From assembly GCF_003334335.1 (NCBI RefSeq), contig NZ_QOWQ01000096.1: a DNA stretch of 1,948 nt; one strand, 5' to 3'. The notes below the pieces were generated by a model, which saw only the letters and a list, made by a program, of their open reading frames with translations, made no database searches and was not told the DNA's origin. The position numbers were made by a program, and so were the translations under genes. Shown here piece by piece: positions 1 to 1,948 of this stretch. Position 1 is the stretch's first letter. Every line of letters starts with the position of its first letter. Origin of the DNA: Escherichia coli. GTDB lineage: Bacteria > Pseudomonadota > Gammaproteobacteria > Enterobacterales > Enterobacteriaceae.

Positions 1-764
1 GTGCGTTTTTCCGGGTCATAGTTTGACGGCACCTGGATGATGCGACCGCGGATATGGTAGTTCACCGTCATCTGCTGACCACCAAACTGCTCCGCATCCA
101 CCTGCATCCCCACAATGGCCGTGTTCGGGTAGCACTGTTTCACATCGATGATTTCGGTGTATGACGACCACAGCGTTCTGTTCTGCAGCTGGTCCGTGGT
201 GCTGTCCGCCGTCTCCCTGACCATCCGGATGTTAAAGGGGCGGGGAGGCAGATTATCCAGAATCACCGACGCAAGGAACTGTGAGGTGGTCTTGCCGTTA
301 ATGGTGACATCCTTTTCCGTCACCCAGTTACCGTTACGCTGTAACTGAATCAGCAGACGGACAGAGGACGGATTACGGTCACCCTTTGACGTGGTCTCCA
401 CCAGTGACTGCACCCCGAAGGTCACCCGCAGGCGGTCAATGTTCGCTGACGTAATGGTGCGTGTTACCGGTTTTGCCCTGGTCACTTCGACACCCAGTAC
501 AGTTTCAGAGCCGGAGGACTCAAAGCCTTCCGGTGGTGTCTGCTCCTGCTCCCCGGCACGCCAGACCGCGGTCACACCGTGTATCACGGGATTACCGTCC
601 GTGTCCGTCAGCGGGGTTTTGTTCACCAGAATACTCTGCAGGCCTTTCACCGGGCCTTCTATCGGTCCCTCACCAATCGCATCAATCACGCTCATCATCT
701 GCGTGGATTTGAGATTATCCTTCACCTCACGAGGCGTGTGTGCCTTACCGCCACCTTTACCCAC
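1..764 (-). CDS. J: Host-specificity / tail-tip protein J (central tail fibre), N-terminal ~254 codons; gene continues past the window start
   Basis: Reverse-complement translation from GTG at 764..762 gives MGKGGGKAHTPREVKDNLKSTQMMSVIDAIGEGPIEGPVKGLQSILVNKTPLTDTDGNPV...NIRMVRETADSTTDQLQNRTLWSSYTEIIDVKQCYPNTAIVGMQVDAEQFGGQQMTVNYHIRGRIIQVPSNYDPEKRT, open to position 1. This closely matches the lambda gpJ N-terminus as I recall it (MGKGSSKGHTPREAKDNLKST...). There is no in-frame ATG upstream before a stop, and an AGGAGAGGGG Shine-Dalgarno lies 6 nt upstream. It is not in the ORF track only because it is truncated by the window edge. Confidence 0.9.
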   Translation of the reverse strand, partial: MGKGGGKAHTPREVKDNLKSTQMMSVIDAIGEGPIEGPVKGLQSILVNKTPLTDTDGNPVIHGVTAVWRAGEQEQTPPEGFESSGSETVLGVEVTRAKPVTRTITSANIDRLRVTFGVQSLVETTSKGDRNPSSVRLLIQLQRNGNWVTEKDVTINGKTTSQFLASVILDNLPPRPFNIRMVRETADSTTDQLQNRTLWSSYTEIIDVKQCYPNTAIVGMQVDAEQFGGQQMTVNYHIRGRIIQVPSNYDPEKR

Positions 765-770
765 TCGATC

Positions 771-780
771 CCCCTCTCCT
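771..780 (-). promoter_or_regulatory. Shine-Dalgarno sequence for J (AGGAGAGGGG on the minus strand)
   Basis: Minus-strand sequence reads AGGAGAGGGG-GATCGA-GTG; the purine-rich block sits 6 nt upstream of the GTG start at 764..762. Confidence 0.6.
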
Positions 781-805
781 GTCTGATGTCTGAATTTGTT
801 TATGC

Positions 806-838
806 CCAAAAAACAACAGGCACCCCGGAGGGTGCCTG
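806..838 (-). terminator. Rho-independent terminator on the minus strand, about 42 nt upstream of the J start
   Basis: Perfect 9-bp GC-rich inverted repeat CAGGCACCC (817..825) / GGGTGCCTG (830..838) with a 4-nt loop (826..829). On the minus strand the hairpin is followed immediately by UUGUUUUUUGGGC (plus 816..806). On the plus strand it is followed by CAUCAUGACGG with no U-tract, so it is unidirectional. Confidence 0.7.
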
Positions 839-876
839 CATCATGACGGAATAAAAATTCTGAATATCTTCACATT

Positions 877-904
877 TTCACAAACTGACTGTGGCGCGTA
901 TAAT
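877..904 (+). promoter_or_regulatory. Sigma70-type promoter on the plus strand: -35 TTCACA (877..882), 16-bp spacer, -10 TATAAT (899..904), with an A/T-rich UP-like tract upstream (~848..872)
   Basis: The -10 hexamer is a perfect TATAAT and the -35 matches TTGACA at 5 of 6 positions with 16-bp spacing. The upstream tract AATAAAAATTCTGAATATCTT is AT-rich. Predicted transcription start is about 911..913. Confidence 0.6.
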
Positions 905-910
905 TTCGCT

Positions 911-1008
911 GCGTTAGTGTTTTTTCTGCCCGAGTAACAAAAACAACTCCTTAACATTAATCTTCATTTGTCTGTCCCGCAGCTCCGCGATCACTGCGGG
1001 ATTTTTTT
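911..1008 (+). ncRNA. Candidate small RNA (~98 nt) in the I-J spacer, transcribed antisense to the tail operon
   Basis: Predicted start 7 to 9 nt after the TATAAT and 3' end at the U-tract of the plus-strand terminator. No ATG occurs anywhere in the transcript and the only GTG-initiated frame is 6 codons. An A/U-rich single-stranded stretch (CUUCAUUUGUCUG, 961..973) lies directly 5' of the terminator hairpin. Both ends are predicted, not mapped. Confidence 0.45.
975..1008 (+). terminator. Rho-independent terminator on the plus strand
   Basis: 8-bp stem TCCCGCAG (975..982) / CTGCGGGA (994..1001) with 6 G-C pairs and an 11-nt loop, followed by TTTTTTT (1002..1008) and then ATGTTTTAT. On the minus strand the same hairpin is preceded, not followed, by the run, so it is oriented to stop plus-strand transcription. 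It abuts the I stop codon (1014..1016). Confidence 0.75.
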
Positions 1009-1013
1009 ATGTT

Positions 1014-1694
1014 TTATCCCTGTCGACCAATAACCACGACCTTTCCGCCCCCGCCTTCATCACGGGTACTGATGTCCTGGGATATACGGCGGGAGCCAAC
1101 CAGCATTTCCCCGTAAGGCACCGGCATCGGGTTACCCTGGGCAATCATGTTGTCCAGTGAGGAAAAGTACGTGTTCTGTTTACCGTTATCCGTTGCCCGG
1201 TAATCCGGTGTTTTTGCCTTCGGGGCCAGCATCTGGGCCACACCGCCCAGAATCATGCTGGCTCCAAGTGAAAACAGCATCGTGGTGGCAGAAAAACCAC
1301 CGGCTGCCAGGGCTGAACCCCATAACGCCATCGTGGCTCCGGCAGTGAAGAAAGAGCCCACGATGGCCGCCGCCCCCAGCACAATCTGCAGTCCGCCCTT
1401 TCCGGCACCGGCCAGTCGCGGCACAATATGGATGACCGTTCCCTCACCCAGTGGTTCGTGAAGGCGGGCATACACCGCCTCCGGTGCCGTGTCATCACCG
1501 GCAATACGTATCTGGTACCAGCCTTCGTTCATCTGACGGCGAAAGCCCGGCACCTGCAGCGACAGGGCACGGATGGCTTCCGCTGCCGTGTTCACATACA
1601 GGCTGATGCGGCGACCAAATCGTTGTAAATCCCCGTGAAGGCAGATGCGGACCAGTGGCGGTGACGCCAGACAGAATGCGTTCGTCGTTGCCAT
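1014..1694 (-). CDS. I: Tail assembly protein I (lambda gpI family): N-terminal ubiquitin-like domain plus Gly/Ala-rich hydrophobic C-terminal region
   Basis: Complete 226-aa ORF from ATG at 1694..1692 to TAA at 1016..1014. The translation MATTNAFCLASPPLVRICLHGDLQRFGRRISLYVNTAAEAIRALSLQVPGFRRQ...GKQNTYFSSLDNMIAQGN...GEMLVGSRRISQDISTRDEGGGGKVVVIGRQG closely resembles lambda gpI as I recall it. A GAGAGAGG purine run (1706..1713) lies 11 nt upstream of the start. Position immediately downstream of K and upstream of J matches the conserved K-I-J order. Confidence 0.92.
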   Translation of the reverse strand: MATTNAFCLASPPLVRICLHGDLQRFGRRISLYVNTAAEAIRALSLQVPGFRRQMNEGWYQIRIAGDDTAPEAVYARLHEPLGEGTVIHIVPRLAGAGKGGLQIVLGAAAIVGSFFTAGATMALWGSALAAGGFSATTMLFSLGASMILGGVAQMLAPKAKTPDYRATDNGKQNTYFSSLDNMIAQGNPMPVPYGEMLVGSRRISQDISTRDEGGGGKVVVIGRQG

Positions 1695-1948
1695 TTTTCG
1701 GAATACCTCTCTCGTTTGCTCAGTTGTTCAGGAATATGGTGCAGCAGCTCGCCATCACCACAGTAAATGGCGGCATGATTCGGCACCGATGAACCAAAAC
1801 AGCACAGCAGCACATCGCCCGGTTGTGCTGATGACAACGGCACCTGATACAGCCCTGTGGCCTCCAGATTATCCAGGTACAGGTTCTGGCCGTTGCGCCA
1901 CCAGTCATCCTCGCGATGAAAATCCGGCATATCAATTCCCGCCAGATG
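1592..1948 (-). CDS. K: Tail assembly protein K (lambda gpK family), C-terminal NlpC/P60 (C40 peptidase-like) region; N-terminus lies beyond the window end
   Basis: The frame is open from the window edge (...HLAGID-MPDFHREDDWWRNGQNLYLDNLEATGLYQVPLSSAQPGDVLLCCFGSSVPNHAAIYCGDGELLHHIPEQLSKRERY...) to TGA at 1594..1592. The Met at 1930 given in the ORF track is internal, not the true start. The LLCCFG Cys and downstream His residues are typical of NlpC/P60 tail-assembly proteins. The ORF overlaps the I start by 103 nt in a different frame. Confidence 0.9.
   Translation of the reverse strand, partial: HLAGIDMPDFHREDDWWRNGQNLYLDNLEATGLYQVPLSSAQPGDVLLCCFGSSVPNHAAIYCGDGELLHHIPEQLSKRERYSEKWQRRTHSVWRHRHWSASAFTGIYNDLVAASACM

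Follow-up and report, generated by a model that had tools for sequence, protein, structure and literature searches.

The tail-tip gene J of a lambda-like Escherichia coli prophage was analyzed in a window of 1,948 nucleotides (the whole stretch of DNA studied here), and homologue alignments together with the pattern of sequence variation indicate that its translation very probably starts at a GTG codon, which appears to be genuine and to form one part of an inherited leader allele. This start is an ordinary and widespread allele, which is present in about one-seventh of E. coli genomes and has already been annotated. It carries little weight as a discovery, being a routine annotation detail in the reference records of O157 Sakai, O26 11368 and BP-4795. 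A useful by-product of the analysis was a conserved antisense small RNA (sRNA) gene, Hfq-bound in Sakai, which accounts for the long spacer between genes I and J.

Gene content of the window

The records closest to the full window were lambdoid E. coli prophages and phages (90-96% identity), and a 361-nt junction sequence was found in identical, independent copies in five complete E. coli genomes. At the identical locus of NCTC9112, the tape measure gene is followed by M, L, K, I and J. In the window, J also follows K (C40 peptidase) and I, which is the position that it occupies in the tail operon of lambda. Features of the window are shown in Table 1.

The start of gene I differs between annotations (window 1592-1694 (-); locus L085, 2466-3047). 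Read from the first ATG (1694), I has 226 aa and shares about 100 nt with K, an arrangement also seen in lambda and in some Stx-phage records. PGAP and other annotations give a 193-aa form that starts 4 nt ahead of the K stop codon; the PGAP version was taken from the identical locus of NCTC9112.

Table 1. Positions and strands of features in the 1,948-nt window
Feature	Position	Strand	Basis or remark
Tail operon genes K', I and J		all (-)	lambda-like E. coli prophage
GTG initiation codon of tail-tip/host-specificity gene J	762..764	(-)	plus-strand 'cac'; alignment with lambda gpJ Met1 and NF049904 position 1
5' part of J, first 254 codons; gene exits window	1..764	(-)	frame, gpJ alignment, codon-position variation
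Shine-Dalgarno region GGAGAGGGGGA, purine-rich	769..779	(-)	5-15 nt upstream of GTG; predicted pairing
Heptamer TCAGACA, two tandem copies	780..793	(-)	directly upstream of Shine-Dalgarno region
Intrinsic-terminator-like hairpin, 10-bp stem, loop TCCG, with T-run	806..839	(-)	about 50 nt upstream of J start, tail-operon sense
In-frame TGA closing the J frame upstream	870..872	(-)	frame reading
I-J spacer, 249 nt	765-1013		between I and J
Sigma-70 promoter-like site, TTCACA-16 nt-TATAAT, 11/12 matches	877..904	(+)	directed away from J, antisense to tail operon
Predicted sRNA of about 98 nt, EcOnc22/23/24 homologue	911..1008	(+)	terminator stem 984-1000 with T-run; 5' end inferred
Tail assembly gene I, 226-aa ORF from first ATG	1014..1694	(-)	ORF; NCTC9112 identical locus
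3' part of tail gene K (NlpC/P60, C40 peptidase), overlaps I	1592..1930	(-)	ORF, profile match

Translation start of J

A preliminary description of this DNA had aligned a conserved MGKG N-terminus with a GTG codon, giving no strand for the gene, and this alignment was borne out on the minus strand from the first residue. Residues 1-254 of J matched profile positions 1-254 of NCBIfam NF049904 lambda_TipJ (E = 5e-163; the full-length cut-off of this family, 1950 bits, is out of reach for the 254 codons of the window), and they aligned without gaps to residues 1-254 of lambda gpJ (8iyk_J and 9e7m_Ja, E about 1e-133). The GTG occupies the homologous site of the lambda J ATG (15505) and is followed, in minus-strand translation, by GGT AAA GGT GGC GGT (G-K-G-G-G) and then by K-A-H-T-P-R-E. 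Upstream, the J frame first closes at TGA 872-870, 36 codons before the GTG. As had also been proposed, in-frame reading of the 35 codons between this TGA and the GTG revealed no ATG, and the only start-like codons there were TTG 809-807 and ATA 803-801.

The pattern of variation points to the same codon. Among 63 distinct start contexts, entropy summed over codons 2-30 was 2.4, 2.7 and 16.9 bits for codon positions 1, 2 and 3, respectively, while the 60 nt upstream of the J start gave flat values (1.49, 1.38 and 1.44) with no codon periodicity. The coding signature therewith starts at codon 2, right after the GTG, which is aligned with the starts of the homologues. Both NCTC9112 and the complete genome of phage PhiR12_1 have a full-length J gene (3,531 nt) with this start. 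The J start was annotated on this GTG in every record inspected (NCTC9112, HS13-1, O26:H11 11368, STEC1588, BP-4795 ORF72, PhiR12_1 and Sakai Sp15/Sp14/Sp11 (ECs_2944, ECs_2720 and ECs_2161)); these annotations are automatic or homology-based and do not constitute independent proof. Literature searches brought up neither proteomic nor ribosome-profiling data for the start of J, and nothing relevant on PhiR12. Initiation at the GTG, the central claim of the preliminary description, is supported by homologue alignment, by the coding signature and by the annotation in all records checked.

The same observations bear on the alternative that J is translated from another in-frame site, either TTG 809-807, 15 codons upstream, or the ATG pair at codons 23-24 (698-693), both of which are start-capable and lie in an open frame. 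The TTG is located within the T-run of the terminator and has no Shine-Dalgarno (SD) sequence. The TCAGACA heptamer between TTG and GTG occurs in two to five copies among the alleles, and with three or four copies the TTG falls out of frame. In addition, ATG alleles have unrelated sequence in the TTG region, with no coding signature upstream of the start. With regard to the ATG pair, variation in codons 2-22 is synonymous and leaves the protein conserved, and where Met23-Met24 are found here lambda carries Leu-Leu, so the downstream ATGs do not represent the start of the family. We consider initiation at either of these sites very improbable and retain the GTG as the likely start.

Distribution of GTG and ATG starts

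We compared the aligned start codons in two sets of homologues. Among 85 sequences, comprising the 80 closest IMG/VR loci, four phage records and the window, the codon was ATG in 78 and GTG in 7. The comparison of start codons among homologues, suggested in the preliminary description, was also run on a leader-independent sample of 117 homologues chosen solely by the coding sequence MGKGGG(K/R)AHTP; here ATG was found in 99 and GTG in 18 (15%), the latter belonging to one leader family and its diverged relative. GTG is the start codon of about 14% of E. coli genes (10.1101/063800). The share of GTG among J homologues is the usual E. coli rate and is not statistically unusual.

GTG is tied strictly to the leader family ...TCAGACATCAGACAGGAGAGGGGGA-NNNN-GTG and to its diverged relative GAAGGGGGA(T/C)TCC-GTG, and leaders of the GGGGGA type carried GTG in every case. 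ATG alleles have unrelated sequence in the last 30-45 nt, for example GTAAGAGGTGATGTA-ATG, GTAAAGGGTGAGACA-ATG and CAGGGGAAGGCTGT-ATG. Exact scans of IMG/VR detected the leader consisting of TCAGACA and GGAGAGGGGGA-NNNN with GTG in 116 stretches and with ATG in none, a ratio that reflects descent as much as selection, the GTG copies being closely related. All 35 distinct leader haplotypes carry GTG; per-site polymorphism around the codon in these haplotypes is confounded by indels and provides no evidence for selection. The leader was found in 785 of 5,426 complete E. coli genomes (2,651 places, with a median of 3 per positive genome) and in 96 phage records, including BP-4795, many Stx1a-, Stx2a-, Stx2c- and Stx2d-converting phages, and PhiR12_1/4/5.

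These distributions leave little room for the idea that the GTG results from a sequencing or assembly error, or from a decay mutation in a dead prophage, and that the true codon is ATG. The prevalence of ATG in most homologues would fit such an origin, and an error at position 764 had been named in the preliminary description as what could overturn its reading. This objection fails, as the leader family is fixed for GTG. The same sequence is present in the five independent complete genomes mentioned above, none of the genomic, phage or IMG/VR copies has an ATG version, and GTG begins an intact full-length J in complete genomes of phages for which a propagation host is given (PhiR12_1, grown on K-12 MG1655, and BP-4795). 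On the basis of these sequences, error is excluded as the source of the GTG, and the probability of this explanation as a whole, decay included, appears negligible.

Terminator and long I-J spacer

With a predicted folding energy of -21.6 kcal/mol, the hairpin at 839-806 recurs ahead of ATG and GTG alleles alike. Its stem has undergone a compensatory exchange from C-G to T-A, with G-U intermediates, and hence represents a real conserved structure. It may stop unmodified transcription on its way into J, or form the 3' end of an I transcript. Its distance to the start is 66-67 nt in ATG alleles and 75-76 nt in GTG alleles. Judging from the alleles compared, the hairpin is not linked to the type of start codon. 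A different hairpin, at about -137, was observed in the 342-nt spacer class.

Long spacers are the norm in this prophage family (235-259, 338-344 or about 850 nt), and the 60-nt spacer of lambda is the exception. ATG and GTG alleles have the same order of elements after the I stop codon: an A-run with a hairpin (an opposite-strand terminator), a variable segment, a conserved block that reads as a near-consensus promoter on the opposite strand, and finally the 10-bp sense hairpin with its T-run. The coupling of the GTG to a strong terminator and an expanded spacer, as envisaged in the preliminary description, did not find support, given that both features are also present upstream of ATG alleles.

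In lambdoid late transcription, Q-modified polymerase from PR' passes intrinsic terminators. During lytic growth, Q-modified RNA polymerase would thus be expected to pass the 839-806 terminator, and J would be expressed by read-through. In the lysogen, we infer that J is insulated from unmodified transcription.

A match to Rfam STnc100 (RF02076) was observed at 807-888 (-), with 25 bits and E = 0.007; it was rejected, its score lying well below the gathering threshold (47 bits). The alignment is confined to the two extremities of the model, its 5' end and its terminator, and 127 model positions are missing. The match may reflect prophage terminator and promoter modules held in common, and not true membership.

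An antisense sRNA gene in the spacer

The long I-J spacer is attributed to the antisense sRNA gene that it holds, and not to the start codon. The promoter and terminator of this predicted gene are conserved in 49 distinct spacer variants, whereas its body varies in parts; the spacer of the window is 89% identical to that of Sakai Sp15. Hfq-CRAC peaks named EcOnc22, EcOnc23 and EcOnc24 have been reported in older Sakai coordinates (Table S2 of Tree et al. 2014; PMC4104026). We related these coordinates to NC_002695.2 by an offset of +139 to +146 nt, which was calibrated on AgvB1. The three peaks map to the I-J spacers of Sakai Sp15, Sp14 and Sp11, respectively, on the antisense strand, and after the coordinate shift the EcOnc22 peak falls inside the predicted RNA body. 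On northern blots EcOnc22 runs as a band of about 85 nt, and it is destabilized without Hfq (PMC4104026), and the EcOnc22-type sRNA has no known target (PMC7873438). Among the records inspected, none has an sRNA gene annotated at 877-1008 (+).

Several other candidates for this region were rejected. AgvB or a Pas sRNA was considered for the CA-rich spacer RNA; AgvB, AsxR and PasA/C/D are found elsewhere, at the PR' moron site close to the lysis genes and Q, and no Rfam match to AgvB, AsxR or Esr41 was found in the window. Two small spacer ORFs, of 38 aa (841-957, -) and 26 aa (914-994, -), and a 32-aa 'hypothetical protein' in the spacer of PhiR12_1 are not conserved. The small ORFs were rejected as genes because their ATG is missing in some alleles and the frame is shifted by indels.

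Leader sequence and Shine-Dalgarno region

Within the leader, GGAGAGGGGGA is invariant across all GTG alleles, and GGAGAGGGGGAU (779-768) ends 4-5 nt ahead of the GTG, a spacing predicted to be functional for an SD sequence. In the window allele, the predicted duplex of this region with the 3' end of 16S rRNA has an energy of -13.4 kcal/mol. GTG leaders had predicted duplex energies of -10.8 to -13.4 kcal/mol and ATG leaders of -5.0 to -13.2 kcal/mol; as the GTG leaders represent just two related lineages, this comparison does not amount to a statistical test. Predicted costs of opening the ribosome-binding site (RBS) were ordinary in GTG leaders and similar to those of ATG leaders; SD strength and RBS accessibility are both model predictions.

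The TCAGACA heptamer was found in homologues in two (115 occurrences), three (5), four (6) or five copies (1). The tandem forms a small variable-number repeat within the translation-initiation region (window 780-793 (-); loci L213 and L060). The four bases before the GTG also vary, being TCGA in the window and CAGA, CCGA or GCGA elsewhere. A hybrid leader was observed at locus L059, in which TCAGACA repeats are joined to an ATG-type SD (GTAAAGGGTGAGACA ATG); such a leader shows that recombination has taken place inside the final 30 nt of the spacer.

One could suppose that selection keeps the GTG to reduce or condition the translation of J relative to I, in concert with the long spacer and the upstream terminator. 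Initiation is generally less efficient at GUG than at AUG, GUG being one of the canonical starts that reach 10-100% of the AUG level (10.1101/063800). A single G-to-A change would give ATG, and none was seen in the 116 IMG/VR stretches or the 35 haplotypes, even though the adjacent four bases do vary; a variable-number heptamer beside the SD could in principle tune initiation. However, ATG alleles also have the terminator and the expanded spacer, which leaves no link specific to GTG, and fixation among closely related copies may be simple inheritance. The predicted SD pairings of GTG leaders are among the strongest and RBS opening is ordinary, which points to compensation, not reduction, so a lower output of J is not evident. 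Moreover, the lambda virion contains three gpJ and three gpI (PMC11101478), and there is accordingly no evident need for a skewed J:I ratio. Such adaptive tuning seems unlikely to us. Inheritance of a working leader allele is the best explanation and ranks above it.

A broader version of this idea would treat the I-J junction as a small regulatory module, in which GUG, the SD and TCAGACA set the translation of J and the antisense sRNA affects the late mRNA. The EcOnc22-type sRNA, which shows full complementarity to some 98 nt of the late mRNA shortly before the conserved terminator, could base-pair with transcripts of the tail operon and alter their processing or read-through into J. If the module were real, the junction would be no passive spacer. 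Taken as a whole, we regard it as quite improbable.

Proposed explanation

Under the preferred reading, inheritance of a working leader allele, J would be translated independently of I. The 30S subunit would bind GGAGAGGGGGA(U) at 779-769, in keeping with the predicted SD pairing, and the initiator fMet-tRNA would read GUG 764-762, so that the protein would begin Met-Gly-Lys-Gly, as it does from ATG alleles. The GTG would be one part of a vertically inherited, recombining leader allele composed of TCAGACA repeats, GGAGAGGGGGA, four variable bases and GTG. This allele would have replaced the last 30-45 nt of the I-J spacer of ATG alleles and is common among lambdoid prophages, those with Shiga toxin included. 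The upstream terminator and the long spacer would be separate, older features that are common to ATG alleles and probably came from the insertion of an EcOnc22-family small RNA. For annotation, the J start should be placed on the GTG in this allele class; for engineering, swaps of J alleles should bring the matched leader.

Comparison with known systems

The predicted RNA of the window resembles EcOnc22/23/24 in that it lies in the I-J spacer on the strand opposite to the tail genes, and its predicted size (about 90-98 nt) agrees with the band of about 85 nt seen on northern blots. On the other hand, the body differs among alleles by a 6-7 nt indel and substitutions. An Hfq-bound transcript has been shown for the Sakai copies of EcOnc22/23/24 alone (PMC4104026), and the copy in the window is a predicted one.

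The J gene of lambda (tip attachment protein J, NP_040600; PDB 8iyk) is similar to that of the window in the K-I-J gene order and in residues 1-254, which align without gaps and with high identity. It differs in having an ATG start, the leader GGAGCGTGAGGA ATG and a 60-nt I-J spacer that contains neither the sRNA cassette nor the terminator.

In Sakai Sp15 (locus L207, 1-1491), two overlapping CDSs, ECs_2943 and ECs_2944, take the place of a single GTG-start J, a sign that J may be frameshifted in this Stx1 prophage.

The closest counterparts of the window are the J genes of Sakai Sp15/Sp14/Sp11, BP-4795 (ORF72), O26:H11 11368 (gpJ) and PhiR12_1, which have the same leader, spacer architecture and annotated GTG. 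The leader that they share with the window consists of TCAGACA repeats, GGAGAGGGGGA, NNNN and GTG GGT AAA GG. The Sakai, BP-4795, 11368 and PhiR12_1 genes differ from the window only in the four bases before the GTG, in a few synonymous sites and in the copy number of the heptamer.
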